Source: Alphaproteobacteria bacterium | GTDB taxonomy: Bacteria > Pseudomonadota > Alphaproteobacteria > JAVJVX01 | Reading direction: 5' to 3' | Assembly (NCBI GenBank): GCA_040220875.1 | Contig: JAVJVX010000005.1 | Span: 521,665 to 585,664 of the forward strand | Length of the DNA stretch: 64,000 nt | Shown here: one piece after another, positions 6,866-27,370 of the stretch | Numbering within the stretch: the stretch's first letter is position 1 | Layout: each line of letters starts with the position of its first letter | Program-made: the position numbers and the translations under genes | Notes under the pieces: model-generated | Databases searched by the model: none | What the model saw: only the letters and a program-made list of their open reading frames with translations | What the model was told of the DNA's origin: nothing

Positions 6866-7333
6866 ATGAGCCTGAGCACAGACGAGGCACGCATCCAGCG
6901 TTGCTACGAATTGGCGCTGCGCGCGGTGCAGCACGGCAGCGAGCCCTTCGGCGCGCTGCTGGTCAAGGACGACACCATCATCATGGAGGCGGAAAACGCG
7001 ACCCGGAAGGGCGAAGACCCGACGCGCCACGCCGAGACGGAGCTGCTTGACCGGGCGCTCCGCGAACTCGGCATCGATGGTGTCCGCGGCGCCACAATCT
7101 ATACCAGCACGGAGCCGTGCCTCATGTGCTGCGGCAAAATGTATTGGGCGGGTCTCGCGCGACTCGTGTTCGGAGTCCGTATTTCAGAGTTGCGCAAGCT
7201 CATGGATTTCGACTACCGGCTGACCGCCGACGGACTTTTTGAGAGCATGAGCCCGCGAATTCCCGTCTCCGGTCCAGTGCTGGAGGCCGATGGCCTGGCG
7301 CAGCACCGCACCTTCTGGACCGCGCGCGACTAA
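6866..7333 (+). CDS. CMP/dCMP-type nucleoside/nucleotide deaminase (guanine/tRNA-adenosine deaminase-like)
   Basis: Zinc-binding motifs HAE and PCLMC. The start is the internal ATG at 6866 with RBS GGGAGA. The long upstream extension in ORF 6221..7333 is a GC artefact overlapping the OMP gene. Confidence 0.8.
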   Translation: MSLSTDEARIQRCYELALRAVQHGSEPFGALLVKDDTIIMEAENATRKGEDPTRHAETELLDRALRELGIDGVRGATIYTSTEPCLMCCGKMYWAGLARLVFGVRISELRKLMDFDYRLTADGLFESMSPRIPVSGPVLEADGLAQHRTFWTARD

Positions 7334-8049: not shown

Positions 8050-8064
8050 GCCGCTGCTCCTTCA

Positions 8065-8349
8065 TCAGACCTTGATTCGATCCTCAAGAAAGGGATCGCC
8101 CTGCGTCGCCGTCTCCGCATCGAGCAGCGTGCCACAGGACGGACAGAAGAACCGGCGCACCACCACATCATCGGCGGTGGTATAGATCCCATCCACCTGA
8201 TTGAGCGGCGCCTCGTCGAGACGGGCCTTCTCCTTCCATGACTGGCTGACGGGCGCGATCGCCGTTTTGCAGGCGGCGCAGGCTGTCATCCAGACCTGGC
8301 CCTTTTCCTGCGTGGCCACGAGGCTGGCCGAAAGTCGCTTTGTGTTCAT
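8065..8349 (-). CDS. Small Zn-ribbon protein, putative third subunit of a hydantoinase/acetone-carboxylase-type complex
   Basis: 94 aa with two Cys pairs (CAACK … CPSCG). Its start overlaps the stop of the hydantoinase-B gene by 4 nt, which suggests translational coupling. Confidence 0.5.
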   Translation of the reverse strand: MNTKRLSASLVATQEKGQVWMTACAACKTAIAPVSQSWKEKARLDEAPLNQVDGIYTTADDVVVRRFFCPSCGTLLDAETATQGDPFLEDRIKV

Positions 8350-10178
8350 TCCGCAGCCTCCGCCCGAAGCCGATCATCACGCATCTGCTGCCGCCGCTCG
8401 GCCGTCGCCGCCTGATCGACCCGGCCGGAAACCGGATCGGCGACCACGCCATAGAGCCTGAGGGCCGAATCGGCCGAGACCGCACCAAGCCGCAGATCCG
8501 TCTCGACCGCGGCCACCTCGCGCGCCAGAGGATCGCCAAACCCGCCGCCGCCATTCCAGCGCACATAGAGCCCGTCATCCGCGTCGAGCCCATAGAGGCC
8601 CCAGGAGATCCGCTCCGACTGGCCAACCATCTCATCGAGCGAGGCCGGCAGAGGCCCGCGATTGGATGGCCCCGACAGCACGTTCTTGACCTTGACGTAG
8701 TTCGACGGCCCGCCCGGCAGGCCACCCGCCAGCCCCTCGCTCATGGGACAGGTAATGCCCTTGCCCGAGATGACGAAACCGATCCCGCCCGCGGGCGAGC
8801 CATGGGGCACGATCGCGTATTCGGCGCCCATGCCGCCGCGATACTCACCGGCCCCGCCCGAATCGGGCATCATGCGCCGGAACAGGTAGAGGACGGGAAA
8901 TTCCGATTCCATCTGTTCCACATTGGCCATGCGCGAAATCGGGTTGGGCACTTCACCGCCCACATCGATCCCATCGGCGAAACTGCGGGCCCCGCCAGCG
9001 CCGCCGAAGGTCTCGGTCATGATCCCGATGGCGTCCTCGTTTCGCTGGTTCTTGCCGAAAAGGAACAGCGCCACGTGGCTGCCGTGCCAGACCGCGGTCG
9101 CTTCGTCCGCCAGGGTTTCACTGGCCGACAGCATCTTCGAGATGCAGGTCACGCTGGCATTGTTTACCGACTGGATGGCGCCCACCGTCGCAACGGAAAC
9201 CGGCGCCGGTCGTGTGCAGTTCACGATCGTGCCCTCGGGCGCGATCATGCGGATAGGCCGGATGACGCCCTCGTTCCAGGTGATGTCGTAGCAAAGCAAG
9301 GGGAAGATCGGCGCAAACATGCCCCCCCAGGCGGCCCAGTAGGCGCAGTTGACGCCATAGGCGGTCTGCGGACTGGAGCCGGAAAAATCGAAGGTCAACT
9401 CGTCGCCCGTCTTGGTCATGGTGAGCTCGACCCGGAAGCGCTCGCCCTTGAGTTCAAGAAACTGGCGCGACTGCCACTGGCCGTCCGGGAGTTCGCGGAG
9501 CCGGGCACGCAGACGCTCTTCCGACTGGCTGACAAGCCGTCTGCAGGCGTCGTCCACCTGCGCCACGCCGTATTTATCGACCAGCTCGGTCATGCGCTCA
9601 CGCGCGACGTTGTTGCAGGCGATCATGGACCGGATATCGAGCGCCACCATTTCGGACGACCGGACCATGTTCAGCATCGTGTTCAACACGTCATGGCGTA
9701 TCCGCCCCCGGTCCACCAGCTTGATCCCGGGCGAGGAAAATCCCTCGGTAAAAACATCGGTGGAATCCGGGCTGAACCCGCCGGGATTGAGTGCTCCGAT
9801 ATCATAGACGTGGACGAAGCAGGCACTCCATGCGACGAGCTCGCCCTCGTAGTGGATCGGTGCGACGAGATAGACATCCGATGTATGCAGCGCTGCCGTA
9901 TAGGGATCGTTGAGCAGGAACACATCGCCTTCGAAGATATCGCCCTCGAAGTTCCGGATAATGTGCTTGCAGGCCTGGCTGGCACTGGTCAGATGGTGCA
10001 GGAAACCCACGCCACCCATCAGCAGTTCACCCTTCGCCGAGTAAAGGGACACCATCAGGTCATGTCCCTCGTTGGTGATGGCGCTGCCCGAGACATGCTT
10101 GAGCGTGATGACCGCCTCGTCCACGACGCGAAACAGTCGATGGCGAATGATTTCGAAGGTAATGGGATCGAAGGACAT
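8346..10178 (-). CDS. Hydantoinase B / oxoprolinase family protein (HyuB-like)
   Basis: N-terminal DPITFEIIRHRL… is a typical HyuB start. 610 aa. Located directly after the hydantoinase-A gene. Confidence 0.85.
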   Translation of the reverse strand: MSFDPITFEIIRHRLFRVVDEAVITLKHVSGSAITNEGHDLMVSLYSAKGELLMGGVGFLHHLTSASQACKHIIRNFEGDIFEGDVFLLNDPYTAALHTSDVYLVAPIHYEGELVAWSACFVHVYDIGALNPGGFSPDSTDVFTEGFSSPGIKLVDRGRIRHDVLNTMLNMVRSSEMVALDIRSMIACNNVARERMTELVDKYGVAQVDDACRRLVSQSEERLRARLRELPDGQWQSRQFLELKGERFRVELTMTKTGDELTFDFSGSSPQTAYGVNCAYWAAWGGMFAPIFPLLCYDITWNEGVIRPIRMIAPEGTIVNCTRPAPVSVATVGAIQSVNNASVTCISKMLSASETLADEATAVWHGSHVALFLFGKNQRNEDAIGIMTETFGGAGGARSFADGIDVGGEVPNPISRMANVEQMESEFPVLYLFRRMMPDSGGAGEYRGGMGAEYAIVPHGSPAGGIGFVISGKGITCPMSEGLAGGLPGGPSNYVKVKNVLSGPSNRGPLPASLDEMVGQSERISWGLYGLDADDGLYVRWNGGGGFGDPLAREVAAVETDLRLGAVSADSALRLYGVVADPVSGRVDQAATAERRQQMRDDRLRAEAAE

Positions 10179-10181
10179 AGC

Positions 10182-12281
10182 TTAAAACTCGATCACGATG
10201 TTGCGATAAGGGTCCATGCGTGCACGGTGCCCGTCCTGGACGACGATGGTGGTGATGGGGGTCAGGATCACGGCCGCCCCCTCGATCACATTGCCCGGCT
10301 TCAAAGCCTCGAACCGATAGATCCTGCCGTCAACGAAAGAATCCGCGTTCAATGCGTAGATGCGCTTTGTGCCGATCAGCGCGGCCGCCGGATCCGCCGG
10401 GCCTTCCTCGAGCGGCACCATGCCGGGCGTGTTCAGCCGGCCCCGGGCCGTGAGACGGACCATCCGGATCTCGACTCCGGCCTCCTTGTAGGCCGAGCCC
10501 TTGCCGTATTTATCTTCGTAAAGCTGCTCGAAATCAGCGACCAGTCGCTCAAGCCCCGCCTCGTCCAGCGGCATATCGGCGCCGACCCGCGTGGTCACCT
10601 CATGCACCTGGCGGCGATAGCGCAGATCGGCTGCCAGATCCAGTTCGATCCGGTCATCCGAGAACCCTTCCTCGCGGAGGCGTGCCTGGCCTGCGGTGAT
10701 GAGCGCCGACAGCAATTCGTTTAACGTCTTTACCTCGCCCGGCACACGAATGGCGCAAGGTGTCGAGAATTCGTGCACCACGTCCGAGGCCACCATGCCA
10801 TAAGCGCAGTTGACGGAAGCGGTATAGGGAATGATGACGCGGCGAACACTGAGTTCGGCGCCGAACGCGTCTGCCAGAAGGGCGCAACTGCCCCCGAAGG
10901 CATGGATACTGAATTCGCGCGGATCATGGCCACGCTCCACCGTGACCTTACGGATGAGATCGGTGATCTGGGCGGCGGCGACCTTGTAGACGCCGACAGC
11001 CGCTTCCTCGACATCAAGGCCGAGGGGCCGGGCCACTTTTTCTTCGAAGGCACGGCGCGCACCCTCAACGTCCAGCGACAGCGATCCGTTGAGGAAGGTC
11101 GTCGGATCCATATAGCCGATCAGGGTCATCACATCGGTCAGCGCAGGCTCTGTCCCGCCCAGGCCGTAGCAGACCGGCCCCGGATTGCTTCCGGCGCTCT
11201 CCGGTCCGATGCGAAGCGATTTCGTCGCTGCATCAGCGCGTACCAGGCTGCCGCCGCCGGCACCGATCGAGACGATGTCGAGCTTGGGCGCCGTATAGTG
11301 GTAGCGGTCGACGATCGGTTCGCGGGCGTACTCCAGAAGCCCGCCGCGAATGACACCGACCTTGAAGGTGGTGCCGCCCATGTCGGCCGCGATCACGTCG
11401 TCCTCGCCCATGAGCTGACCCAGATCCTGACTGCCGATCAGGCCTGCCGCCGGGCCGCATTCGAGCATGCCGATCGAACGCTCCGCCGCCTCTTCGGCCG
11501 AGAGCAGCCCGCCATAGCCCTGCATCACCAGGACCGGCCCCTCATAGCCAGTCGATTTGAGCTGTTTTTGCAGATCGGTCAGATAAGCGTGGGTGACCGG
11601 CCCGGTATAGGCGTTGATCACGGTTGTCGATGTGCGTTCGTATTCGCCGGGCACCGGCGCAATCTCCTTGGATAGGGAGACATAGATTTCGGGGTCGATG
11701 CGCCCGATGATCTCCCGGATCTTTTCCTCATGGGCGGGGTTCGCGAAACTCCAGAGCAGGCTGACGGCCACGGCCTCGGCTCCGGTGCGATTCAGCAGAT
11801 CGCGCAGCGCGGCCTCGGTCTGCCGTTCATCCAGCTCGACCACGACCTCGCCCGCGGCATCCACCCGCTCCGTCACGCCGAGAATGGCGCTCTTATCCAC
11901 CAACGGACGCGCCCGGTGGGTCTTGACGGGATGCTTGATCTCCTCTTCCGTCAGCCCGCCCCAGCGGCCATAGGCGGCGCGCGTCATGGCAAGCGTGTCC
12001 TCGAACCCCCGTGTCGTGACAAGCGCCGTGGCGCCGCCGCTGCGGGTCAGGATCGCGTTGTCGACCACCGTGGACCCATGGACGAAGAGCCGCGTGTCGC
12101 GGAAGAGCTCCTCGACGGTGATGCCGAGATCGTCGGCCGCGGTTTTGATGGACGCCATGACGCCGTTGGCGAATTCAGGCGGGGTCGAGAGCGCCTTGCC
12201 CAGCGCGACGCCATGCTCGTCGGAAAAAACCACCGTGTCCGTGCACGTGCCCCCCACATCCGTCGCCACGACATAGCTCAT
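10182..12281 (-). CDS. Hydantoinase A / oxoprolinase family protein (HyuA-like)
   Basis: N-terminal VATDVGGTCTDTVV (hydantoinase/ASKHA fold). 699 aa. Confidence 0.9.
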   Translation of the reverse strand: MSYVVATDVGGTCTDTVVFSDEHGVALGKALSTPPEFANGVMASIKTAADDLGITVEELFRDTRLFVHGSTVVDNAILTRSGGATALVTTRGFEDTLAMTRAAYGRWGGLTEEEIKHPVKTHRARPLVDKSAILGVTERVDAAGEVVVELDERQTEAALRDLLNRTGAEAVAVSLLWSFANPAHEEKIREIIGRIDPEIYVSLSKEIAPVPGEYERTSTTVINAYTGPVTHAYLTDLQKQLKSTGYEGPVLVMQGYGGLLSAEEAAERSIGMLECGPAAGLIGSQDLGQLMGEDDVIAADMGGTTFKVGVIRGGLLEYAREPIVDRYHYTAPKLDIVSIGAGGGSLVRADAATKSLRIGPESAGSNPGPVCYGLGGTEPALTDVMTLIGYMDPTTFLNGSLSLDVEGARRAFEEKVARPLGLDVEEAAVGVYKVAAAQITDLIRKVTVERGHDPREFSIHAFGGSCALLADAFGAELSVRRVIIPYTASVNCAYGMVASDVVHEFSTPCAIRVPGEVKTLNELLSALITAGQARLREEGFSDDRIELDLAADLRYRRQVHEVTTRVGADMPLDEAGLERLVADFEQLYEDKYGKGSAYKEAGVEIRMVRLTARGRLNTPGMVPLEEGPADPAAALIGTKRIYALNADSFVDGRIYRFEALKPGNVIEGAAVILTPITTIVVQDGHRARMDPYRNIVIEF

Positions 12282-12395
12282 CCGGTATCCTTTTCTGCGC
12301 TATTCCCTGCCCACGCCCGGTGGCGCCCAGCCGGACGATAATATATTTAATTTCAATTGAAATCCAACGATAAAACGCCGCGGCGCGGCCGCCAT

Positions 12396-13140: not shown

Positions 13141-14466
13141 TTAGCGGCCCGTCTCCTCGAGCACCGCGAGGTTGAAGTCCTCGGGGCTCAGGCCTGGCGG
13201 GTTCATTTCGCAAGCGCCACCACCCTCGATGGTGAAGAAGGTCGCGTGGTCGCGCTGGAAATCTATGTTCACACCGAACGAGGTGAACATGTAGATGGCG
13301 GGGTTGCCGTTGGCGTCACGCCATCCGTCCAGCGATTCGTAGACCCTGTTGGCAAACGAGGCCCATTTCCAGAATTCGCCCTTCTGGTCGTATCCGGCCA
13401 TGAAGTAGGGCCGCCAGATTTCGGCATCGAACCAGTTGATCTTGCGCGAATACGGATGGTATTCGGGCGGCGTCGATTCGACGACGTAGACCGGACGCAC
13501 TTCCCACATGTCCCTGGTATTCCAGTAGGGCTCGGTGCTCAGATCGATCCGCGGGAAGGTATCCTGATCGGAACTGGCGTTGGGATACCATGAGCCGCGA
13601 TCGGTGAGCGGCACGTCCTTGGCGCTGTTGGCGTGTGCGAAGACATGCGTCTTGCCGAGCAGCTTGTAGCTCTTGTACCAGCTGGGATGGGCGTTGAAGG
13701 TTTCAAGATCGTCCTGCAACTGGTCGGTTCCGCCGATGGGGTCCATCCAGGCGCCGCCCGACAGGCGGCGGATCCGGCGGACGGTGCGGATATAGGCCCA
13801 GATGTCATCCAGCTTGGGATCCCAGTACCGGATGGAAAAGGTGCCGAGGCCCTTGATGTCCTGCGGGAAGCGGGCGAAGAGCAGGCTCTTGTGGTACTGC
13901 GATCCGTCACCCTCCACGTAGGGTTGGTTGACCCGGGCCCGCATGTAGTAGCGCGCGAAGGTCCAGTGCTGGATGCGCTCGATCCCCTGCGAGCCTTCGA
14001 TGAAGACCTGGGCGAACGGGCACCAGAACTGGTCGCCGTGGGGCTGCATCGTCGTGTAGTTCCAGACGATCTTCGCAGCCACGTCCGGGTCGTCCGCGTT
14101 GATTTCCGGGAACGGAATGCCGGTCGTGTAGTTCTGGATCATGTTGGTGGTGGGATCGAGGCTGGCCTGGCCCTTGTACTGCTCGGTCAGCTGATTGATC
14201 CGCGGATCGTAGGGCATCGGATTGGTTGCCTCGACCGGGCGGATTTTCAGGTTCTTGTTGCGGACCTGCCATTCCAGCCGCTCCGGAATGAGGTCGCCCA
14301 CCTTGTGACCTTCGAAGGTCTGGGTCTTGACCTGGTCGATATTCGCAGCACTGATGACCGTCCCCGGGGCCAACTCCTCGGCGCCGGCGCTCGCCGACAG
14401 GCCGAGAGCGGCCGCGAACCCGACCGTGCCTGCGAATACGCGCATGCGGTCTCTTCTAGTTAACAT
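13141..14466 (-). CDS. DUF1329 family periplasmic protein (LolA-like), paralog 1
   Basis: Family motifs GIPFPE…KIVWNY, VRRIRRLSGGAWMD and RPVYVVESTPPEYHPYSRK…FDAEIW. Start reassigned to the ATG at 14466 with RBS GAGGAG 7 nt upstream. Signal peptide MRVFAGTVGFAAALGLSASAGA. Confidence 0.7.
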   Translation of the reverse strand: MLTRRDRMRVFAGTVGFAAALGLSASAGAEELAPGTVISAANIDQVKTQTFEGHKVGDLIPERLEWQVRNKNLKIRPVEATNPMPYDPRINQLTEQYKGQASLDPTTNMIQNYTTGIPFPEINADDPDVAAKIVWNYTTMQPHGDQFWCPFAQVFIEGSQGIERIQHWTFARYYMRARVNQPYVEGDGSQYHKSLLFARFPQDIKGLGTFSIRYWDPKLDDIWAYIRTVRRIRRLSGGAWMDPIGGTDQLQDDLETFNAHPSWYKSYKLLGKTHVFAHANSAKDVPLTDRGSWYPNASSDQDTFPRIDLSTEPYWNTRDMWEVRPVYVVESTPPEYHPYSRKINWFDAEIWRPYFMAGYDQKGEFWKWASFANRVYESLDGWRDANGNPAIYMFTSFGVNIDFQRDHATFFTIEGGGACEMNPPGLSPEDFNLAVLEETGR

Positions 14467-14764
14467 CCCGTACTCCTCAAGTTTATGAATTTGGTTTCCC
14501 GTCTCGAACCCATCGTGCTCCGAGGCAGGGCTGTCCACCCCAGACCGGTACCGATGCGTTCCCCCCAGAAAATTTCTGTCCCCCTTCTTTCGAGTGGGTT
14601 CGTGCTCAAGAATAACGGGGAATTCCATTCGCGGACAACATGAAAAGGATTTCAGACTCCGGATTTTTGACGCCCCGTCTGTCGCGCGACTCGGGACCGC
14701 GCCAACCCGCCCGCCGCGCCGAAAGCCGCGATTGCCCGTGATATCACGCGTCGCGGCGCGGCCG

Positions 14765-14835: not shown

Positions 14836-15246
14836 CTAGTTTTCCCGCGGTAGCCCGAGGGCCTCGCGCACGAAGCGGCGCAACTGACGGACAGGTACCG
14901 GCTTGTCGACGACGGCGTGGACTGCGACCCGTGCCCGATTGGCCCTGGCGACGGCATCAAAATCGCCTGACATCAGGATGATTTTGGCCGCCGGGTTGGC
15001 GGAGACCGCCATCTCCGCCACCTGGATCCCGTCGATCCGGGGCATGTTGATATCGATTATGAGCACGCGGGGGCGCAGTTCTTGAATCGTCGCGATCGCG
15101 CCGGTGCCGCTCAGCTCCTTGTAAATCGTGACACCATCCATTTTCAGCGCTTCGGCCACCAGCCGCACTGCCTCGATATCGTCGTCGACAACGAGGACGG
15201 CCTTGCTTTTTTTCTGGTAGTCACCTTCAACAACTTTCAGGGTCAT
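14836..15246 (-). CDS. Single-domain response-regulator receiver (CheY-like)
   Basis: VLVVDDD acidic pocket and phospho-acceptor context LIIDINMP. 136 aa. Located immediately downstream of the hybrid kinase gene. Confidence 0.85.
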   Translation of the reverse strand: MTLKVVEGDYQKKSKAVLVVDDDIEAVRLVAEALKMDGVTIYKELSGTGAIATIQELRPRVLIIDINMPRIDGIQVAEMAVSANPAAKIILMSGDFDAVARANRARVAVHAVVDKPVPVRQLRRFVREALGLPREN

Positions 15247-15256
15247 GGTCCTTGTC

Positions 15257-16648
15257 TCATTGTCTGTCCGAGATCATCTCGAGGACCTTTCGTCCGAGTG
15301 TGATGAGATCCAGCGGTTTCTCCAGAAGGGCGGTGTTGCCGTCCTGCAGATGGTCAGAGATCTCGCCGATATGGCTCGAGCCCGTGACGAAGATGACCGG
15401 CAGGCGCGGGTCACGCGCCCGGAGAAGTCGAAAAAGCGCTTTGCCATCCATGCCGGGCATGCGGAGATCGGTGATCACGATATCGGCGGCGGCGGCGGCA
15501 AAAGCGTCTGCGGCGGCGCGGCCTTCCTGGAAGGTCTCGACGACGCACCCCAGCGCGGTCAGGTAGGTCGCGACCATTTCCATCGCTTCCTTCTCGTCCT
15601 CGACGACAAAAACCCGCGCATCGATCCTGGTTACTCCGGGATTGAGGAGTCCGGGCGCGTTTTCGCTCGGGCGCGCCTCGTAGCTCACGGCTTCACCACC
15701 GCCCCCCGACTTTGCCCGCGCGCCCGAAGCCGGCAGGGTCACGCGGAACTCGGCCCCGCCCGGCACGTTCTCGACACTCACGCTGCCGCCCATTCGGCGG
15801 ACGATCGTCAATACGTTGGCGAGCCCAAGCCCCGTACCCTTACCCTCCTCCTTGGTCGTGAAAAAGGCGTCGAATATCTTGTCCTTGTGTGCCGCGACGA
15901 CGCCGCCGCCCGTATCACGTACCGTGAACCATGACATGTTGAGGGCGGCTTCTTCGGCAAGGTAGAGCGAGATTTCGCCGATCGGGCCGTCGCCCTTTAC
16001 CGACCGACCATTCTGCGCGGGCGCATCGCGCGCATTCTGCACGACCGCATCGCGTGCATTCTGCACGACCGCATCGCGCGCATTCTGCACAAGGTTGATG
16101 ACGATCTGTTCCACCTGAATGGCGAAACCCGTCGTCAACAGATGACTCTGCGCCACATCGACATTGAAACGGATGTGTGCGCGCTCCAGTTCGGCCTCGA
16201 GAAGCCGGGCCGCGCCAAGCAGCGCCTGGCTGAGCAGGAAATCCGAGGGCCGGCCCCCTTCCTTGCGGGCGAAACCCCGCATGTGGCGGATCATCTCGGC
16301 CATGCGCTGGGTTTGTCGCCGAATGGCACGAAAACGCGCGATCAGGGGCGAAGTGCCGTTCTCATCCGACATGATCGCCATATCGGCCTCCATGCGGATG
16401 ACATTGAGCGGCTGGTTCAGCTCATGGGTCAGGGTGGCCGCCATCTGGCCCAGAGACGCCATCTTCTGGGTCTGGACGAACTGGCTTTGCAGCAATTCGC
16501 GTTCGGTCGTATCACGGCCGGTCAGGATATAGATCTGCCGCCCACCGAGAGACATGCGGGTCAGGGCGGCATCGAAGGGAAACTTGCGTCCGGAAGGGCT
16601 TGCTCCCGAAAGACGCATGAATTTTGTCGCCGCCTCGTCATCCTCCAC
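15257..16648 (-). CDS. Hybrid sensor histidine kinase (HisKA-HATPase-REC); 3' part of a frameshifted PAS-kinase gene
   Basis: H-box LTHELNQPL, N-box NLVQNARDA (triplicated in tandem), G-box GTGLGL, and a C-terminal receiver (VFVVEDE…ITDLRMPGMDG). The N-terminus begins mid-PAS domain (RKFPFDAALTRMSLGGRQIYILTGRDTTERE). Confidence 0.8.
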   Translation of the reverse strand: MEDDEAATKFMRLSGASPSGRKFPFDAALTRMSLGGRQIYILTGRDTTERELLQSQFVQTQKMASLGQMAATLTHELNQPLNVIRMEADMAIMSDENGTSPLIARFRAIRRQTQRMAEMIRHMRGFARKEGGRPSDFLLSQALLGAARLLEAELERAHIRFNVDVAQSHLLTTGFAIQVEQIVINLVQNARDAVVQNARDAVVQNARDAPAQNGRSVKGDGPIGEISLYLAEEAALNMSWFTVRDTGGGVVAAHKDKIFDAFFTTKEEGKGTGLGLANVLTIVRRMGGSVSVENVPGGAEFRVTLPASGARAKSGGGGEAVSYEARPSENAPGLLNPGVTRIDARVFVVEDEKEAMEMVATYLTALGCVVETFQEGRAAADAFAAAAADIVITDLRMPGMDGKALFRLLRARDPRLPVIFVTGSSHIGEISDHLQDGNTALLEKPLDLITLGRKVLEMISDRQ

Positions 16649-18035
16649 CGGCCATCAGGTGCTTCAGGTTTTCTGCCTCGTAGGTGCTGAAAAGAACATT
16701 CACGGGTGCACCGATCGTATCGTGTTCGTTCCGGCCGAAGACCCGCTGGGCGGCACGATTGAGCGATTCGATCAGACCGCCGGGGCTGATCGTCACGATG
16801 GCCTCGCCCGCCTGCTCCAACACGGTGCGGATGCGGCGCTCCTGCGCCATCAGATCCGCTTCGGCCTTCTTTCGCGGGGTGATGTCCGAAAAGGTATCGA
16901 CGATGCCATCCCTGAACGCGATAGCCCTGACCTCGAGCCAGACATCGCCCTCCGCGGTTGGCTGGCGATACTCAAATTGCTGCAGTTGCGATGTTTCAAT
17001 CGCATCAACGAATTTTTGAAACAGGCCTGTGTCCCGTGCTTCGGGAAAGGCCCCGAGCAGGGAATTTCCGACAAGTGTTCCGCCCCGATAGCGCAGCAAC
17101 CTCTGGGCTGCGCGGTTCACCAGGTCGTTCCTGAAGTCGACGATCCGGCCCGTGTCATCCCGAATGGTCGTCAATTTGGCGATGCCGATGGAAGACGCCT
17201 CGAAAATCCCCTCAATGAGAGCGAGCGCCGCATCCCGTTCGGTCATGGTCTGACGTTCTTCCGTCACATCGAGCGATATGCCCCCCAGGCCGACGAGGGC
17301 GCCATCCGAAGCGGTGACGGGAAACTTGATCGATTCGAAAATTCGTTCGCGGCCATTGAGCACAGCCATCTCATCGACGGTAACGGTTTTTCCGGCCTTC
17401 ATCACCGCGAGGTCGTTCTCACGCAGTCTATTGCCCAGATCGGTCGGGTGAATTTCCTGGTCCGTCCGCCCGATCATGTCTTCCGGGTTTAGCCCGTAGA
17501 ATTCGGACCCGTAGGTACTGTGCAGCAGGTATCTTCCGTCCGGGGTCTTGAAATAGACCGCAGCCGGCACGGCGTGCAGGAAGGCCAGGAACCGGGCCTC
17601 AAGATCCTTGTGCAGTTTTTCGAGGCGCTGCACCTGATCCAGGCCGGCGACCGGATTGGCCTCGCGCAGGCTGACGATGAGGCGCTCGTCCATGGGGTTC
17701 AGGCGGATCAGGAAATCGGTTCCCTCATGATCCTTGAAACGGTGCAGGAGGCTTTCCGGCCTGACCTGATCGAGGACACGGGACAGGATGCGCGCGAATC
17801 CGTCGGGCAGGGGCGCCGGCATCACAGCGGCCAGCGACGAGAGATCGCCGGCACTGCTGGCCAGCAATCGCGCCTTCCGGTTGCGATAGAGACAGATGAA
17901 GTCCTCGAGCCGTTCGCCCGGCCCCTGGCGTTCGACGAAATAGACCGCCTCGTCGGCGGTTTCGACGACCGCCCCCAGCATGTCCCGTGGCAAGGAGGCG
18001 ACTCGCCAGACTTGAGGTTTTGGGGCTGATGACAC
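16638..18035 (-). CDS. Multi-PAS sensor segment; 5' part of the frameshifted hybrid histidine kinase gene
   Basis: Several PAS-like repeats. It ends GRNEHDTIGAPVNVLFSTYEAE…, the first half of a PAS domain whose second half continues in the +1 frame at the start of ORF 15257..16648. Confidence 0.75.
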   Translation of the reverse strand: MSSAPKPQVWRVASLPRDMLGAVVETADEAVYFVERQGPGERLEDFICLYRNRKARLLASSAGDLSSLAAVMPAPLPDGFARILSRVLDQVRPESLLHRFKDHEGTDFLIRLNPMDERLIVSLREANPVAGLDQVQRLEKLHKDLEARFLAFLHAVPAAVYFKTPDGRYLLHSTYGSEFYGLNPEDMIGRTDQEIHPTDLGNRLRENDLAVMKAGKTVTVDEMAVLNGRERIFESIKFPVTASDGALVGLGGISLDVTEERQTMTERDAALALIEGIFEASSIGIAKLTTIRDDTGRIVDFRNDLVNRAAQRLLRYRGGTLVGNSLLGAFPEARDTGLFQKFVDAIETSQLQQFEYRQPTAEGDVWLEVRAIAFRDGIVDTFSDITPRKKAEADLMAQERRIRTVLEQAGEAIVTISPGGLIESLNRAAQRVFGRNEHDTIGAPVNVLFSTYEAENLKHLMAGGG

Positions 18036-18257
18036 GGGGCGGGCCTATACGCAGTGTGCGGTTGCGGCAGCACGGGATGAGCGAGGTGCGTCCGCCGGCG
18101 AAGGCCGACTATAACACAGGGGATAGGAAAATCATCATAAGACCGGGGATGGCCCGTTAACCCTGACCGCCCGCAGCCTCATTGTGATAGCCGGGTGATA
18201 GCCGGGTGATAGCCGGAATTTCGATGAATTCGAGGTGCCGGCGAAGGCGCCGCAAAG

Positions 18258-21026
18258 CTAGCAAATGATGCCGCACTGGCGCGCGCGGAGCACCGCGTCG
18301 ATCCGCCGGTGCACATCAAGCTTGGCGAAGATTTGCTTCAGGTGCCATTTGACGGTGTTCTCGGTCAGGCCCAGCTCGACCGCAATCAGCCGGTTGGGCA
18401 TCCCCCGGCCAACGCGCTCGAGAATTTCGACCTCCCGTGCCTTGAGCGGATCGGACAGGGTCGCCGCCCTGAACGACTCCTCGGCATCAGCCGCCTCGCG
18501 ACCGGACTCGGCCTCGAAAGCAGCGAGAAGGTGAAGCACATATTGCTGCAGATCGCCCGAGACGAAATCGGACAGCAGCCGGTTCGCCGCCAGCAACGAC
18601 TGTATCCGGGCGCCTTCGTCAACGAAGCTGCGCACGAGGCCCGCTGGCGCGCCAAGGCGCAGGGATTGGTGGAGAGCGCGGTGAGCACCGCGCTCGTCCC
18701 CGGTCAGGTCAAGCGCGCGAGCATGCACGAGATGTAATTGGCAGGCGAGCCGCCAGGCGCCCCGATTCTCGAGAAAGCGTGCCCATTTGCGTGCCGGTCC
18801 CGCGGCCGCCGCCGGGTCCTCGCCAGCGAGGCGCAGTCGAATCCAGACGAGTGCCGGCATCAAATCGAGACTGCCGCTGTCCGACCCCGGCAGGATCGCG
18901 GGGCCGTCGGCGGCAATGCCGGCCCGCAGCGCGAGCTCACGTGCCCGATCGGCCTTGCCGGCGGTCAGCAACTGCCGGACCTCCTCCGCGATGAGCGTGA
19001 CGTCGAGACGGGCAAAGCCCTTGTTGCGAGCGATGATGCGCCCTTCGCCGAGAATTCTCAGCGCATCCTCACGCCGGCCCGAGCGCCACAAAATCCGGGA
19101 TTGATAGAGATAGCCGGCGACCAGTTGGTCGACGAACCCGATCTCGTCGGCCATGTGGAGGTTTTCTTCCAGAAGGCCTGCTGCCTTTTCTACTTCGTCG
19201 CGCTCGTAATGGAGCTCGGCCAGCAGCGGGGCGACCACCGCGATCAAGGGCGACTGGTTTCCTGAAAACCGTTTGAGTGATGCGAGGGCTCGCCTGAAGG
19301 AGTCTTCCGCGATATCGAGCCGCCCCATCATCAGGGCGCTGGCCCCCTGAATCCCGTCGAGAAAAGCCAGCCCGACGTGACTGTCCGTCATCTCGAAAAG
19401 ATCGCGCGCGCGCGCGGCCCTCTCCGCCAGGCGCTCGAACTGGAAAAACTCCCGCTCGGCAATGATCAGCACCGCTTCGGTACTGCCGGTCAGGTATGAA
19501 TCCTCGGGCGCCAGCTTGAGGTATTCAGTAGCCAATTCCCGCGTCGCCGCGAGGTCGTCGCGCAGCCCCGCCAGCATCAGCTTATTGTGCAATACGCGGC
19601 TGGCCAGGCTGTGGGACCTGCTCCCGCGCGAATTGCCCCTGTCCGCAGGGAGCCGGTGTTCGATGTCGTCGAGAATTCGCCGCGCTTCATCGAACTGCCA
19701 GCGCATCTGCAGTGCCCAGGCCTGCACCAGCCGGGCGCGGGGATAGTCCTGGAGATAGGATTCAGGGATCCGGCGGAAATAGCGATTGATGAAGGAAATT
19801 TGCCCGGTATATACGATCCGGTCGCTCCAACGGTCGAGCAGCGCGGCCGCTTCGGAAAAATCTTCGGCCCTGAGCGCGTGATCCACCGCCTCGCCAAAAA
19901 GGCCGTTTTCGGAAAACCAGCGCGAGGCCTTGAGATAAATCTCATTCAACCGGATTCCGGCGCCGGCCGCCCGGTTCTCGGCAAATTCGGCCAGCAGGTG
20001 ATGATAGCGGAACCATTTACGGGTCGAGTCCAGCGGCACGATGAACAGGTTGCGATCGGCCAAATAGCGGATCACCTGGGCCGAATCCCGCCTGCCCGTG
20101 ACGAAGTCACATAAATCCGCACAAAATCGTTCCAGGGGTGCCGTCTGCAGCACGAAGGTGTAGACATCCTGGGGCACGTTCGCGAGCACATCCTCGGCCA
20201 GGAAGTCCGCAATATCGGCGTGCGCGCCGGAGAAACTCCGGAGCGCGCCGGTCATGTTCTGTGGTGTGCGGGTCCTGAGCGAGATGGACATGAGCTGCAG
20301 GGCCGCAATCCATCCCTCGGCCTTGTGGTTCAGGAGCGCGAGATCCTCCGCCTCCAGATCTATGTCGAGCGCGGCGCGAAAATAGAGGTTCGCCTCGCTG
20401 ACCGAGAACTTCATATCGTCTGATCTGATCTCGGCAAGGGTCCCCTGCATGCGGAATCGCGCGAGCGGCAGCGCCGGACGTTCCCGGCTGAGCAGCATGA
20501 GATGAAGATTGCCCGGACAGAGCTCCGCCATGAGGCGCACGGCCTCGATCACTTCACCATCTGCCAGAACGTGGAAATCGTCGAGAACGAGCCACACATC
20601 TTCCTCGCGGGCGAGGAGTGCTTCCGTCAGATGAGCCGCGGCGCGAACCGGCGACACGGCCCTGCCCGCTTCCAGAACAGCGGACAAGGCGTGGCCCAGC
20701 TCCGTTCCCGCGTGATCGAGAGCCGCGCATATATATGAGAGAAAGATGTGCAGGTCATTGTCGCCCCGGTCCAGACTGACCCAGGCGACGGTCCGGCCGG
20801 CGCCGCGCGCTTCCTCGGCCCATTGGGCGAACAGGCTGGTCTTGCCGAATCCGGCCGGCGCCACGGCCGCCATGAGCGGGCGCTCGGACAGGGCACACAC
20901 CTTGTCGAGCAGACGCTCGCGGCGGGTCAATCGCCCGGGCCGGGGCAGAAAGACCTTGGTTGAAATAAGGGCCGGCGCTTCCGGCATTCGCCTCTCCTCC
21001 CGCTGGCGAAGCGGGGAGGATAGCAA
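18258..21026 (-). CDS. Large ATP-binding LuxR-family regulator (MalT/LAL-like), copy 1
   Basis: N-terminal P-loop GFGKTSL. 922 aa. C-terminal LuxR HTH (EVEILERVGRGMPNRLIAVELGLTENTVKWHLKQIFAKL). Confidence 0.85.
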   Translation of the reverse strand: MLSSPLRQREERRMPEAPALISTKVFLPRPGRLTRRERLLDKVCALSERPLMAAVAPAGFGKTSLFAQWAEEARGAGRTVAWVSLDRGDNDLHIFLSYICAALDHAGTELGHALSAVLEAGRAVSPVRAAAHLTEALLAREEDVWLVLDDFHVLADGEVIEAVRLMAELCPGNLHLMLLSRERPALPLARFRMQGTLAEIRSDDMKFSVSEANLYFRAALDIDLEAEDLALLNHKAEGWIAALQLMSISLRTRTPQNMTGALRSFSGAHADIADFLAEDVLANVPQDVYTFVLQTAPLERFCADLCDFVTGRRDSAQVIRYLADRNLFIVPLDSTRKWFRYHHLLAEFAENRAAGAGIRLNEIYLKASRWFSENGLFGEAVDHALRAEDFSEAAALLDRWSDRIVYTGQISFINRYFRRIPESYLQDYPRARLVQAWALQMRWQFDEARRILDDIEHRLPADRGNSRGSRSHSLASRVLHNKLMLAGLRDDLAATRELATEYLKLAPEDSYLTGSTEAVLIIAEREFFQFERLAERAARARDLFEMTDSHVGLAFLDGIQGASALMMGRLDIAEDSFRRALASLKRFSGNQSPLIAVVAPLLAELHYERDEVEKAAGLLEENLHMADEIGFVDQLVAGYLYQSRILWRSGRREDALRILGEGRIIARNKGFARLDVTLIAEEVRQLLTAGKADRARELALRAGIAADGPAILPGSDSGSLDLMPALVWIRLRLAGEDPAAAAGPARKWARFLENRGAWRLACQLHLVHARALDLTGDERGAHRALHQSLRLGAPAGLVRSFVDEGARIQSLLAANRLLSDFVSGDLQQYVLHLLAAFEAESGREAADAEESFRAATLSDPLKAREVEILERVGRGMPNRLIAVELGLTENTVKWHLKQIFAKLDVHRRIDAVLRARQCGIIC

Positions 21027-21099
21027 ATTCCGCCCCCCTTTCGCAGGGAAAAAGGGCGAGTGCCGGCCCCTGCCGGCCTCAAATCACCGGGAGCCGGCG

Positions 21100-22212
21100 C
21101 TAGGCGAGGGCGGCCACATCCAGAAGGCCGCCCGTCACGATATTGTTGGGCGACTTGAATGTCGGGATGACGTATTTCCCGATCAGTTCGATCGAACGCA
21201 TGAGCTCCTCGTGTTTCATGATCCCGTCCAGGCGCAGGATGACTTCGTCATAACCGAGCGCCTGAAGGCGGGTAATCTGCTCGATGAAGTAATCGGGTGT
21301 CCCCACCATCAGTCCCGGTGTCGTGCTCTGCACGTAATCAATATCGTTGATGTGCGACTGGATCTTCTCGATCTGGTCCATGTACTTGTAATCGGGTGAC
21401 CGCTTGGCGAGATTTTTGTAAATTTCGATGACTGCGTGGAAAAATTCGATCGTGGTCGGACCGCCCTGCTCCATCGCGTCCTTCTTTGTCTCGGCACAGT
21501 AGGCCGGAAGAACCAGAAATGAGAGAGAGTTGGTCACGAACTTCCCGACCTGTTTTGTCGGCGCGGCGATCTCCTTCTGATAGATCCGGGCGCATTCCTC
21601 GGCGTAGTCCCAGCCGAAATAACTGTCCCACGCCATCGCGCCGATCCCCTTCTCGCCGGCGATCTTGTGCATTTCAAGACTGGTCGTCGCGACATAGATA
21701 GGCGGGTGCGGGTTTTGCAGCGGCTTGGGCGTGAGGTAGACCGGCGTTTTCATATCCCAGTATTTTCCGTGGAACTCTACCTGCTCCTCCGTCATGGCCT
21801 GGACGATGAAATCCAGGGATTCATTCCATTGGGCGCGGGTCTCGGTCGGATCGACGCCCATCGCGTCCATGGTGATGATCGAGTTGGATCGGCCGGTCCC
21901 GAACTCGGCCCGGCCATCGGAGACGAGATCCAGAGTTGCAAGCTGCTCGGCGATCCGCAGCGGGTGATTGAACTTGATCAGGAGGCGGACCATGTGGCGC
22001 AGCTTGATACGGCTCGTGTGGGCGGCGACAGTGCCGTAAAAAACTTCCGTCGCCCCCATCCCGAAATCGCGCAGGAAGTGCTGCTCGGACGAACCCCAGA
22101 AATCGAAGCCCATTTCTTCCGCCAGCACGATCTCGTCGATCATCTCCTTGTAGCGGCGATGATGGGTCGTGCCGTGAGGCACCGTGGCCTCGTGAATAAG
22201 TCCGAACCGCAT
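21100..22212 (-). CDS. LLM-class flavin-dependent (luciferase-like) monooxygenase
   Basis: TIM-barrel LLM features (MRFGLIHE…, …LRLDG…). Start reassigned to the ATG at 22212 with RBS GAGGAG. Confidence 0.85.
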   Translation of the reverse strand: MRFGLIHEATVPHGTTHHRRYKEMIDEIVLAEEMGFDFWGSSEQHFLRDFGMGATEVFYGTVAAHTSRIKLRHMVRLLIKFNHPLRIAEQLATLDLVSDGRAEFGTGRSNSIITMDAMGVDPTETRAQWNESLDFIVQAMTEEQVEFHGKYWDMKTPVYLTPKPLQNPHPPIYVATTSLEMHKIAGEKGIGAMAWDSYFGWDYAEECARIYQKEIAAPTKQVGKFVTNSLSFLVLPAYCAETKKDAMEQGGPTTIEFFHAVIEIYKNLAKRSPDYKYMDQIEKIQSHINDIDYVQSTTPGLMVGTPDYFIEQITRLQALGYDEVILRLDGIMKHEELMRSIELIGKYVIPTFKSPNNIVTGGLLDVAALA

Positions 22213-22418
22213 AATGTTCTCTCCTCGAACGGTAAGATTGTGCGCTATTCTCGCCCCCCGGCCGGCGCCCCCACACCCCTCTATTCGGGTAGGACGCACA
22301 GCACACAGGCCCTGTCGTCTGCCGGGCCGCCCGGCATACGCTACCCGGAACGAGGGGTGACGACCCCGCCCGGCACGTCCCATGCTGGGCGTAACGCAAT
22401 ATCGCAAAGGGGGGCTGA

Positions 22419-22814
22419 ATGGCTGAACCGCAATCCAAGGACTGTTCGGACGGGCTGGTCCGGGCGATGCTGGCGGGCGATCTGGACGCCTTCGTGGCGC
22501 AGTATACCGACGACGCCGTGCTTTACGGACCCGCCAATGTCCAGAGTGTGGGCAAGGAGGCCATCCGCGCCGAGATGGGAGAATTTTTCAAGGTCATCCA
22601 GGCCGATTCCTTCGACTGGGACGATAACGCGGCCGTCTCGGGTGACGTGGCATATCACTGGGGCACCTGGACGTTGAAGGGCAAGAACAAGGTGACGGGC
22701 GATGACCTGGAGCTCAAGGCCAGGACGCTCGACGTACGCCGTCGGCAGGCGGATGGCACCTGGCTCATCGCGGCCGACCACGCCTCATGGTTTCCGCAGG
22801 CACCGGACGCCTAG
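22419..22814 (+). CDS. SnoaL-like/NTF2-fold (DUF4440-type) small protein
   Basis: 131 aa. Typical DUF4440 segments (…FVAQYTDDAVLYGP… …TWLIAADHAS). Confidence 0.5.
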   Translation: MAEPQSKDCSDGLVRAMLAGDLDAFVAQYTDDAVLYGPANVQSVGKEAIRAEMGEFFKVIQADSFDWDDNAAVSGDVAYHWGTWTLKGKNKVTGDDLELKARTLDVRRRQADGTWLIAADHASWFPQAPDA

Positions 22815-23039
22815 CGGGCTTCCGCGAGGTCGACGTCCATCCGCGGCCGATCGGCCGAATCTCCCCGGCGCCCGGGTGCCGGGCGAAAAACCGCCTCCCC
22901 GGGGGCAAGCCGACCGTGAGGAAAGCGGCATCCTGGGGGCATGCGCGCTGAGGACACCGCAAGCGTGCCCCCTGTCGGGGGACACGGAAAAGCCGGCCCG
23001 CCTGCCCTCGGATACCCGGCCCGCCGGTGCGGCGGCGGC

Positions 23040-25847
23040 TCATATCAGGCCGGCGTTTTCCGCCATTCGAACCGCAGCAAGACGACGGCGGACGCCCAGC
23101 TTCTGATAAATGTGGCGTATGTGCCAACGAACCGTCGTAATTCGGATCTTGAGGTGCTGGGCAATTTCACTGTCGGAAAGCCCGGCGCCCATCGCGCGCA
23201 GAACCTCAGCCTCCCGCGGCGTCAACAGGTTCTCGCTGACCGAAGCGACCATGGTGGCAGGCCCCGCCTTGCTCTGCATGAATTTATTGCAGGCCGCGAA
23301 AAACCTGTCGAGGTCGCGCGTGCCCACGAGGCGCGTGGCCTGGTCACGCAAGAGCTGCAGAGTTGGCCAGAGCCATGACAATTCATCATAAACTGTTCGC
23401 CCGAAACCATGCGAATTCGCGAGCCGCGCCGTGGCGCCCAGAACCTCGGCGGCCTTCGCCGTGGTGCCTAACCGGCCATGGAGGCCCACACGCAACAAAT
23501 TTATTTTCAGGAGCGGCCTAAAGGCTCCACCCGCGTCGAGCACCCGGGAGATCGCCTCTAGTGCGGCCGAGGCTTCCTGTAATAATCCTTCGTCTTCGCG
23601 ACCGGCGAGGAGGGCGGCGCGGGCAAATTTTTCGTGCAGCCCCAGGCTTTCCAATGTCAACCCGCGCTTTGACGCCAAACGGAAAGGCGGCGGCGCGCTT
23701 TTCAGGGTGTCGGAGACGATTCCGGCAACGAACGGGAGAGTTTCGATATCACGACCGTCCCGAGCGATCCGAACCACCTGCCCGACGGAGGGAGGGAGCG
23801 CGGCTTGTCGCAAGATCTCGTTCTCGATGGCCACAGAAATTCTTGGATACCCGTATCGTTGGGCGAAATCCTGCGCTTCCTGCGCGACCGTTCTGAAAGT
23901 CCCGGTTGGTCCCCGTTCAGCCATTTTGAGGCGCAGCACATGCGCCACACCAAAAAGATCCGGCAGGGCAAAACTCTGCAGGCAGGGCAGTATTTCTCCG
24001 ATCTGCGCGTTCAGGCCTTCCAGCTCGTTCAATTCGTAACGAATCTCCATTTGCCCGACGATAGCCATTGACTCGAGTGTACTGCGGGTGTCGCCCAAGG
24101 ACTGGGCAAGCTCGACCGCCAGCTGGAAGGAGCGAGACGCCGATTGCCACTTGCCGAGATCACCATGGATGATGCCGGAAATGCAGCAATGATAGATCTT
24201 GCCCAATTGCGCATCGGTCCTGGCATAGAGGCTTTCTGCGCGTTCCAGGATGGGGGTGGCGCTATTGAGATCGCCGGCGTGGCGTGTGGCAAGAGCCAGG
24301 CAAGACCACGTCGTCGCCTCGTCATACAGATTTGCTCCCGAAGACTTGTATGTGTCGAGCCACTGGGTGGCCTGCTCGCGAACGCGGGGCAGATCGTCCT
24401 GAAACAGGGAGAGCATCATCTCACGATGCTTGATCCGGCCTTCCAGGGATAGAAATTTCGCCGCAGAAATCCGCTTTGTCTTTTGGAGGGTTTTGAGACG
24501 TCCGCGTATCCGTTTTAAGACCTGCTCGGCTTCGTCAAAAGATAACTTGCCCTCAAGCGCCCAGACCTGATTCAACAGGATATCAGGAAACCGGTCCACG
24601 ACCGCCATCGGCAGTCCTTCCACGGAATCAAGCAGTTCCTTGATCTTGCCCCGAGAAAAAAGATCCTGTGAGATTGAGCTCACAATGCCGGCGGCCTCGT
24701 CCGTCAATCCCGCAGCAAGGGCGTGTTCAAGCAAATTTTCCTGCGACACGTCCCCGCGACTGAGGAACCTAAAGGCATATTTGTGCCATTGCCTTTTTTT
24801 GTCGGGGGCCTCTTCCTGGAAGATACGGCGAAGGCTCTCGCACAATGTCCGATTTAACTGGAGTTTGCCGGGAACGGATGCCGATGACGGCTCCAGAAGA
24901 AATTCCCGGTCCCGCGCATCCTGGAATGCGTCAAGCAAGGCCGGGGTCCTCGACAAAGAACGGACGTCGTCAATGCCAAACTGTCCAAGTGCGGCCAGTT
25001 GAAACAGGGAATGGCGGGCGGCGCGCGATCGAACCGCCAGAAATTTGGCTCGGACATAATCGTCGAGGATTTCCTCGATCTGACGTTTTGTCGGCCTCGA
25101 TCCGGCCCGGAATTTCTGGTGATGATGCGAGACATGAGCAATGGGCCCGATCCAGCCATCGCTGGCATCGATAAGATCGGAAATGGGCATAGGTGGATCT
25201 TCCGTGCCCGTCACAAGCGAATAATACGTTTGGAGCGATTGCGCGGTATAACGGAGCTTGTCGTGCGTAAAGACTTCCGGAAAAACCGCGCCGTTCGGGA
25301 CCTCTTCCAGAAGAGGGGCTGGCAGCCGCCGGCCGAGCACGACCAGCTTCAATCCTGACTCAGGCGAGGCACCAAGCTCCCCAAGGAGTCTGGCCGCAGC
25401 GCCATTGTCCAATTGCTCGACGTCATCGATTACCAGCGTCGCCGAGATATCCCGCGCTGAAAATTCGTCCAGTAGAAGTGCAGGAAAAAGCATGCGGAGT
25501 GCCGGATTGTTTTGCCGGCGCAGGGTGGCAATACCACTGCCGACAACGAGCCCCGCCCGCGAGAGAGCTGCGACAATGTCACCGAACAACCGGCCCGGCT
25601 CGCTATGGGCGGCCCCCAGACGAAGCCAGGCGACCGTTTGACCGCGCTTGATCGCCCCATCGGCCCAAATGGCGAGAAGGGTCGATTTTCCCCAACCAGG
25701 CGGAGCGACGAGATAGCTTGGGGTTTCGCCGAGCGAGTCGAGGACCGGAGCGGCAGCCGCCGGCGGTGGCAGCGCAAAGGGTGGCAGGGCCACCGGACGG
25801 AAACGGATCTCTCCGCTTAACTGGGCAGAGGCGAGGGGACTGTCCAT
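23040..25847 (-). CDS. Large ATP-binding LuxR-family regulator (MalT/LAL-like), copy 2
   Basis: P-loop GWGKSTL. 935 aa. C-terminal LuxR HTH (EAEVLRAMGAGLSDSEIAQHLKIRITTVRWHIRHIYQKL). Confidence 0.85.
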   Translation of the reverse strand: MDSPLASAQLSGEIRFRPVALPPFALPPPAAAAPVLDSLGETPSYLVAPPGWGKSTLLAIWADGAIKRGQTVAWLRLGAAHSEPGRLFGDIVAALSRAGLVVGSGIATLRRQNNPALRMLFPALLLDEFSARDISATLVIDDVEQLDNGAAARLLGELGASPESGLKLVVLGRRLPAPLLEEVPNGAVFPEVFTHDKLRYTAQSLQTYYSLVTGTEDPPMPISDLIDASDGWIGPIAHVSHHHQKFRAGSRPTKRQIEEILDDYVRAKFLAVRSRAARHSLFQLAALGQFGIDDVRSLSRTPALLDAFQDARDREFLLEPSSASVPGKLQLNRTLCESLRRIFQEEAPDKKRQWHKYAFRFLSRGDVSQENLLEHALAAGLTDEAAGIVSSISQDLFSRGKIKELLDSVEGLPMAVVDRFPDILLNQVWALEGKLSFDEAEQVLKRIRGRLKTLQKTKRISAAKFLSLEGRIKHREMMLSLFQDDLPRVREQATQWLDTYKSSGANLYDEATTWSCLALATRHAGDLNSATPILERAESLYARTDAQLGKIYHCCISGIIHGDLGKWQSASRSFQLAVELAQSLGDTRSTLESMAIVGQMEIRYELNELEGLNAQIGEILPCLQSFALPDLFGVAHVLRLKMAERGPTGTFRTVAQEAQDFAQRYGYPRISVAIENEILRQAALPPSVGQVVRIARDGRDIETLPFVAGIVSDTLKSAPPPFRLASKRGLTLESLGLHEKFARAALLAGREDEGLLQEASAALEAISRVLDAGGAFRPLLKINLLRVGLHGRLGTTAKAAEVLGATARLANSHGFGRTVYDELSWLWPTLQLLRDQATRLVGTRDLDRFFAACNKFMQSKAGPATMVASVSENLLTPREAEVLRAMGAGLSDSEIAQHLKIRITTVRWHIRHIYQKLGVRRRLAAVRMAENAGLI

Positions 25848-27275: not shown

Positions 27276-27370
27276 CGGCTTTTCTCCCCAGGATTTGGGC
27301 GGCCCCCATTCAGGCAGGCCGCACCGGTCGCATTCGAATTATCTTTTTCTGGTTTAGGGGGCGGTTGGGC

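Follow-up and report, generated by a model that had tools for sequence, protein, structure and literature searches.

A length-polymorphic, in-frame 24-nt tandem repeat in the N-box helix of a hybrid histidine kinase gene from an uncultured alphaproteobacterium

The two-component gene bvgS of Bordetella carries a poly-C tract and is phase variable. Repeat-mediated ON/OFF variation of two-component genes has also been described for flgS/flgR of Campylobacter jejuni (PMC8355987, PMC3930126), with longer tandem repeats reported to vary in promoters of Mycobacterium tuberculosis, alongside in-frame variation of its pe/ppe genes (PMC12817950), and with in-frame changes of simple sequence repeats reported in Burkholderia pseudomallei (PMC3352902). 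Here we describe a 24-nt tandem repeat found in a 64-kb stretch of DNA (hereafter the window; GenBank assembly GCA_040220875.1, contig JAVJVX010000005.1, positions 521,665 to 585,664) from an uncultured alphaproteobacterium. The repeat array, at positions 16009-16090 of the window, is probably a polymorphic in-frame minisatellite within the catalytic (CA) domain of a hybrid histidine kinase with the domain order PAS-PAS-PAS-HisKA-HATPase_c-REC (REC, receiver). The repeat itself is real, length-polymorphic, in-frame, and located in the catalytic helix, and within the reach of our searches it is lineage-specific.

Tandem Repeats Finder describes the array at 16009-16090 with a period of 24 nt, 3.4 copies, 91% matches, and a score of 136, making it by far the top tandem array of the window (the runner-up scores 66). 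The unit GTGCAGAATGCGCGCGATGCGGTC, read on the minus strand, is matched three times with at most three mismatches, at 16067-16090, 16043-16066, and 16019-16042, with no further match within the window and 0 matches expected from 100 shuffles. The minus strand is the coding strand, and the open reading frame (ORF) at 15257-16648 reads ..QIVINL VQNARDAV VQNARDAV VQNARDAP AQNGRS.. through the array, such that the three full units (16019..16090) are in-frame and encode residues 187-210 of the ORF. An initial annotation of this DNA, made from the sequence alone, had described an in-frame tandem triplication of about 3.5 copies with one C/T difference; the tandem multiplication is confirmed, and the encoded peptide given there matches the ORF exactly. 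The copies differ at more than one site, however, with the first unit (c1, 16067-16090) marked by GCG..GTC, the second (c2, 16043-16066) by GCA..GTC owing to a synonymous GCG>GCA change, and the third (c3, 16019-16042) by GCG..CCC, ending in CCC instead of GTC (Val>Pro). Furthermore, the supposed half copy amounts to the 10-nt GCGCAGAATG (A-Q-N-G..) at 16009..16018 on the minus strand, a partial fourth unit; the 8-nt microhomology GCAGAATG is common to it and to the beginning of every full unit.

The array lies in the downstream ORF of a split gene (15257..16648, minus strand, 463 residues), the product of which is identical to NCBI protein MEQ9088049.1 (P0245) and comprises the second half of the third PAS domain (PAS3) followed by the HisKA, HATPase_c, and REC domains. 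Pfam matches place HisKA (PF00512) at residues 66-132 (E 1e-10), HATPase_c (PF02518) at residues 177-307 (E 3e-18), and a C-terminal receiver domain (PF00072) at residues 346-451 (E 3e-22). In an alignment of 107 sequences, His75 of the ORF (H21 of the construct modelled below) is the H-box histidine and occupies an invariant column, Asn185 falls on a nearly invariant N-box column, and Asn189, with its AAT codon at 16082-16084, on an invariant one. The invariant or nearly invariant columns comprise N131, N135, D191, G193, G195, F205/F208, and G217-L222 in construct numbering. The ORF of the window retains every catalytic motif, from the H-box His and the two N-box Asn residues to the G1, F, and G2 boxes, and the gene, judged by its sequence, passes every test for a HisKA-type hybrid kinase (HisKA, HATPase_c, and REC).

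The Pfam boundaries of HATPase_c and the N-box columns occupied by Asn185 and Asn189 uphold the initial placement of the repeat in the N-box of this domain. As both residues lie in or next to the first copy, the repeat multiplies the C-terminal half of the N-box. The catalytic Asn of the N-box coordinates Mg2+. The first N-box Asn and hydrophobic core residues belong to the segment EQIVINL, which precedes the first copy only; D, R, and A are found at those positions in copies 2 and 3, and for this reason the first copy would be the catalytic one, and the sole copy in catalytic register. The expansion had initially been assigned to the ATP lid. The lid, however, lies between the G1/F and G2 boxes of the fold, which we take to be around residues 245-276 in this ORF, and the N-box helix is distinct from it, with the extra units situated at the C-terminal end of helix alpha1.

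The impression of a kinase with no close relative (37% identity for the best match) was overturned by an exact look-up of the receiver protein encoded directly downstream, which together with a cluster listing and further look-ups retrieved conspecific loci. The anchor for these look-ups, a single-domain response-regulator gene at 14836..15246 on the minus strand, probably encodes the signalling partner of the kinase. For the European Nucleotide Archive (ENA) assemblies among the loci retrieved, the use of long-read assemblers is judged from contig naming only. The window allele (MEQ9088049.1/MEQ9088050.1, on an 804-kb contig), taken as the reference, has three 24-nt units, one copy of an 8-nt element with a frameshift, and three copies of an 11-nt repeat upstream of the gene. 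Assembly GCA_040216435.1 (contig L097) is 100% identical to the window, with three units and one 8-mer with the frameshift, the 11-mer array lying outside the contig. Assembly GCA_040217455.1 (L088) has four units, one 8-mer with the frameshift, and three 11-mers, with no mismatches to the window over 20.4 kb except the 24-nt gap, and over the same 20.4 kb ERZ26051963 (L087) differs by two single-nucleotide polymorphisms (SNPs) and has four units, two 8-mers, an intact frame of 918 residues, and eight 11-mers. Four units, two 8-mers, and an intact frame of 918 residues are also found in ERZ25074367 (L095), with seven 11-mers. The shortest array is that of ERZ26692762 (L094), with two units (VQNARDAV, VQNARDAA), two 8-mers, an intact frame of 901 residues, three 11-mers, and flanking DNA ~99.3% identical (L093). 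The kinase gene of this last strain also holds a fourth indel, a 3-nt in-frame deletion at about 3800-3815 of L094 (PAS2 region, window ~17190) that converts ..IAKLTTIRDD.. to ..IAKSTIRDD...

Among near-identical genomes, which are separated by 0-4 SNPs over 20-43 kb, copy numbers of 2, 3, and 4 are thus found for the 24-mer, of 3, 7, and 8 for the 11-mer, and of 1 and 2 for the 8-mer. Across 43 kb, comparison of near-identical genomes yields three indels and four SNPs, and each of the indels changes the length of a tandem repeat within the kinase gene or immediately upstream of it. These indels are not generic noise, since the same ENA assembly (ERZ26051963) shows two mismatches and no gaps against the window over a further 22.7 kb outside the locus (L098). 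Additionally, a Logan contig from SRR26209234 (L099) has 100% identity to the window over 20.6 kb. At least two units are present in every assembly, with the array found in at least six independent assemblies. The initial annotation had proposed a slipped-strand duplication, potentially variable, and a comparison with orthologues; with two, three, or four units on near-identical DNA of conspecific assemblies, the orthologous alleles are length-polymorphic and the proposed variability is borne out.

Outside the species cluster, the best homologue among 5.8 billion proteins has 37% identity, with the GTDB representative genomes yielding no orthologue of the kinase ORF and nothing closer than 31% identity, and with a megablast of 20 kb against plasmids returning no match. 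In the CA domains of the 120 best homologues no tandem repeat was found (0/120), and all have a single N-box, in agreement with the earlier statement that one copy is the norm in HATPase_c domains. Among metagenome sequences, the pattern NARDA-x3-NARDA at a 24-nt period was matched six times, in no case by a kinase, and a phmmer search of the 43-residue repeat region against 1.84 billion representative proteins recovered only the representative of its own cluster (P0244) and unrelated low-complexity proteins. Furthermore, no report of a duplicated N-box, or of a repeat inside a kinase N-box, was found in the literature searched.

We propose that replication slippage, or unequal exchange between tandem copies, adds and removes 24-bp units of eight codons each, which fits the alleles because the changes come in unit-sized steps, keep the frame, and occur on SNP-free backgrounds. 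The series may have been seeded by the microhomology GCAGAATG, which recurs 24 nt apart, with the partial unit at 16009..16018 the likely seed of the first duplication. The unit would change faster than point substitution, with genomes that have no SNP over 20 kb differing by one unit. An exact order of duplication was sought in the unit markers (GCG/GCA; GTC/GCC/CCC), which gave no parsimonious single path, and slippage promoted by a hairpin, or a structured element, was rejected, as single-strand folding is no better than that of shuffles.

The expanded kinase appears functional, because the intact 2- and 4-copy alleles (L094 and L095) differ at 11 synonymous and 4 non-synonymous sites, corresponding to synonymous (pS) and non-synonymous (pN) divergences of 0.016 and 0.0020 and a pN/pS of 0.12. 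By our own binomial estimate, 11 against 4 departs from a neutral 3:1 expectation with p of about 1e-4, and the neighbouring MalT-type gene has a pN/pS of 0.076 in the same comparison. With intact alleles of two and four units under purifying selection, the expansion would be older than the frameshift and would lie within a gene that has been under purifying selection.

An AlphaFold2 model of residues 55-320, built with the 107-sequence alignment, has a mean predicted local distance difference test (pLDDT) score of 84 and superposes on solved structures of the dimerisation and histidine phosphotransfer (DHp) and CA domains (HK853, CckA, ThkA), with a target-normalised TM-score of 0.88 and a root-mean-square deviation of 1.9 for 3a0t. 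One unbroken helix, at construct residues 122-154 (ORF residues 176-208), spans all three copies, with a pLDDT of 94-96 up to construct residue 150, and is followed by a 15-residue loop and the next strand, such that helix alpha1 is predicted to be 33 residues long in the 3-copy allele. The initial expectation that the expansion would abolish kinase activity is unsupported by these results, given the pN/pS of the intact 2- and 4-copy alleles and a model in which the canonical N-box is kept intact and the helix is merely longer. The N-box Asn and the G1 box are 56 residues apart in this kinase, compared with a median of 43 in homologues (5-95% range 31-50), and subtraction of two units gives 40. 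In relatives, the insertion point is a segment of about 8 to 22 residues that forms a loop of variable length, which would explain the tolerance of the expansion.

Each unit would lengthen the N-box helix alpha1 at its C-terminal end by VQNARDAV, which amounts to ~2.2 turns of helix or about 12 Å, with the first copy supplying the catalytic Asn, the extra copies forming a helical extension, and the 15-residue loop then returning the chain to the beta-sheet. The extra units may be tolerated, or they may tune the activity of the kinase. The alleles, which look functional, provide a natural series of insertions (+8, +16, and +24 residues) where the N-box helix of a Bergerat ATP-binding fold ends, and this series is a ready test both of the tolerance of the N-box helix and the CA-DHp interface, and of helix length as a means of tuning kinase output.

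Several observations weigh against a polymorphic minisatellite in a functional kinase. No single-copy ancestor was found among the assemblies compared, and the direction and order of events set out above are what we infer from alleles of two or more units. The estimate of selection is drawn from just 15 substitutions. AlphaFold is prone to predict helices for repeats of this kind, and the homologues give no alignment depth within the insert. Finally, the k=31 Logan contigs of SRR26209234 break inside the array, with one (L096) stopping 30 nt into it and others (L089-L091) beginning at 16051, and these breaks fall exactly at the unitig boundaries predicted for a junction between two c1 units (c1-c1), which is present in the 4-copy array. 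From its contig sequences, this sample seems to hold the 4-copy allele, alone or mixed; the three copies of the window could have come from the collapse of a 4-copy array, or the sample may be a mixture.

It is nonetheless rather unlikely that the assembler created the array or, short of that, the count of three. The 4-copy array holds a 35-nt internal repeat (c1-c1), which could be collapsed in a small-k graph, whereas the 3-copy sequence is without a duplicated 31-mer; the Logan contig breaks, in a strain 100% identical to the window, therefore fit the c1-c1 junction and not the 3-copy sequence. The accession prefixes of the 3- and 4-copy metagenome-assembled genomes (MAGs), JAVJPG and JAVJPR, are also close together, which points to a single batch of submissions. 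Against this, the presence of at least two units in each of six or more independent assemblies extends across different pipelines, some with long-read-like contig names, and two independent assemblies, that of the window and GCA_040216435.1, contain the 3-copy allele. The units are individually marked (GCA, CCC, GCC), with no 41-mer duplicated even in the 4-copy array, and this array, at most about 106 nt long, should be spannable by typical single reads. The assembly artefact considered in the initial annotation is thus rejected for the array itself, and survives only as a question of three or four copies in the assembly of the window.

The short-read contigs L097 (1352 nt) and L096 begin or stop within 10-30 nt of the 8-mer site and of the 11-mer and 24-mer arrays. 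Contig breaks at these three repeat sites are as expected from mixtures of length alleles in the samples, and are suggestive of such mixtures.

In the window's allele, the reading frame does not run unbroken from the sensor domains through to the kinase core. The upstream ORF of the split gene (16638..17993, minus strand, 451 residues as annotated, and open back to 18035) encodes the PAS domains and the first half of PAS3, ends in ..HLMAGGG*, and is identical to NCBI proteins MEQ8388937.1/MEQ9088050.1 (P0241). At the frameshift site (16647..16654, minus strand), the window has a single TGGCCGGT, compared with TGGCCGGC-TGGCCGGT in the intact conspecific alleles of L087, L094, and L095. A deletion of 8 nt between direct repeats of 7 nt has removed one of two TGGCCGG(C/T) copies; it breaks PAS3 in two and disconnects the sensor from the kinase core, and had gone unnoticed in the initial annotation. 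The last PAS domain of the upstream ORF ends at profile position 63 of 113, and the N-terminus of the kinase ORF resembles the missing half, with restoration of the frame extending the Pfam PAS coverage from 2-63 to 2-110 of 113 and giving PAS_9 coverage of 2-103 of 103. The frameshift is real, because it is also present in the Illumina-derived Logan contig L096 and because the PAS profile completes upon repair.

A first repair, in which one G was deleted, also restored the PAS domain, but the true difference is the 8-nt repeat unit present in the intact alleles. A generally indel-prone assembly was likewise rejected as the source of the frameshift, with ~20 other genes of the window full length by Pfam and no gaps over 22.7 kb elsewhere between the ENA assembly and the window. 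With its sensor uncoupled from the kinase as assembled, the window's copy, which combines three units with the 8-nt deletion, is probably a recent null or crippled allele. The matching NCBI records list two separate proteins as a result of the frameshift, and as copy number and frame differ among MAGs of one population, annotation from a single assembly, which here gives two genes, is misleading.

The upstream repeat, a perfect array of three 11-nt copies at 18184..18216 (CCGGCTATCAC on the minus strand, GTGATAGCCGG on the plus strand), lies closely behind the stop of a MalT/LuxR-type gene, ~190 nt before the kinase start. It is situated about 70-100 nt upstream of TGTTATAGT, which reads by eye as an extended -10-like element, and a consensus scan found no sigma-70-type promoter. 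Together with the two coding repeats, this array raises the possibility of an adaptive contingency locus, in which the 11-nt tract sets expression, the 8-nt coding tract acts as an ON/OFF switch, and the 24-nt N-box tract grades kinase output. Such a locus would account for the confinement of all three indels, against four SNPs, to the kinase gene and the DNA just upstream of it, and for the variation of the 11-mer between 3, 7, and 8 copies (three in the window, L088, and L094, seven in L095, and eight in L087), and loss of one 8-nt copy does truncate the protein. The contig breaks at the 8-mer site, 10 nt before which L097 begins, and at the 11-mer (L096) hint at within-sample heterogeneity, and precedents exist in the promoter tandem-repeat variation of M. 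tuberculosis (PMC12817950) and the phase-variable flgS/flgR of C. jejuni (PMC8355987, PMC3930126). However, the copy numbers are low, the 8-nt tract consists of two imperfect copies and its loss is therefore not readily reversible, the 24-nt changes preserve the frame, and the promoter scan was negative, such that we consider an adaptive contingency locus unlikely. A more specific form, in which the 24-nt variable number tandem repeat (VNTR) of the N-box serves as a helical ruler, with 12-Å steps in alpha1 tuning the kinase/phosphatase balance or receiver docking within a three-switch contingency locus of a free-living alphaproteobacterium, is similarly doubtful. Repeat-mediated variation can focus on one regulatory gene of an environmental, non-pathogenic bacterium, with three repeat sites accounting for every indel in 43 kb.

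Neutral decay, in which the gene is a dying pseudogene and the expansion a meaningless lesion acquired after inactivation, is quite improbable. It would be in keeping with the frameshift in PAS3 of the window's allele, and with the 3-copy alleles being seen only on the frameshifted haplotype, but the existence of intact alleles with two and four units and a pN/pS of 0.12 indicates that the expansion predates the frameshift. In addition, the catalytic motifs are all intact, the GC content at third codon positions (GC3) is gene-like at 0.74-0.76, and none of the ~20 other genes checked in the window is truncated. A DNA- or RNA-level element, with the direct repeats acting as protein-binding iterons or structured RNA and the coding effect incidental, has the mere existence of direct repeats in its favour and can hardly be entertained, given that the unit is found nowhere else in the window, that either strand folds no better than shuffles (z +0.74 and +0.40), and that the period is exactly eight codons within a well-conserved protein motif.

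The wider neighbourhood of the kinase, taken jointly at 7330-12299 and 18258-28636, includes an acetone-carboxylase-like trio (hydantoinase A, hydantoinase B, and a gamma subunit), an isochorismatase, a MarR-like regulator, and a Rieske oxygenase, together with two large MalT/LuxR-type regulators on either side of a luciferase-like monooxygenase; this may be a ketone or aromatic catabolic island under the control of the kinase. A DUF1329/LolA-like gene at 13141-14628 has a pS of 0.20 and a pN of 0.046 between the 99.3% strain and the others, compared with a pS of about 0.02 in neighbouring genes. Further DUF1329 paralogues lie at 26004-27338 and 36362-37657, with a 216-nt patch of 83% identity tying the gene at 13141-14628 to 26475-26687, and this suggests that its divergence stems from recombination or exchange among the three DUF1329 paralogues of the window. 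Three further ORFs (51364-53379, 53429-54922, and 34427-35818, of ~667, 497, and 463 residues) have gene-like GC3 and no Pfam match.

In its domain order, fold, and boxes, the kinase of the window resembles the canonical HisKA/HATPase_c core (HK853, CckA, ThkA; NtrB-like, with the N-box NLLxNARDA), from which it differs in having the C-terminal half of the N-box two to four times in tandem. As for flgS/flgR and bvgS, repeat-mediated indels have given rise to frameshifted (OFF) and intact (ON) alleles of the kinase gene in one species. The tracts of flgS/flgR and bvgS, however, are homopolymers or short heteropolymers that change reversibly and at high frequency, whereas the frameshift of the kinase gene consists in the loss of one of two imperfect 8-nt copies, and its 24-nt array never alters the frame. 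The VNTRs of M. tuberculosis and B. pseudomallei are similar to this locus in having units longer than a few bases and copy changes that outpace SNPs, with in-frame changes adding or removing peptide repeats and an upstream repeat varying between near-clonal genomes. In contrast to the in-frame repeats of M. tuberculosis and B. pseudomallei, which lie mostly in surface or repetitive proteins, the minisatellite described here falls in the catalytic motif of an enzyme domain.

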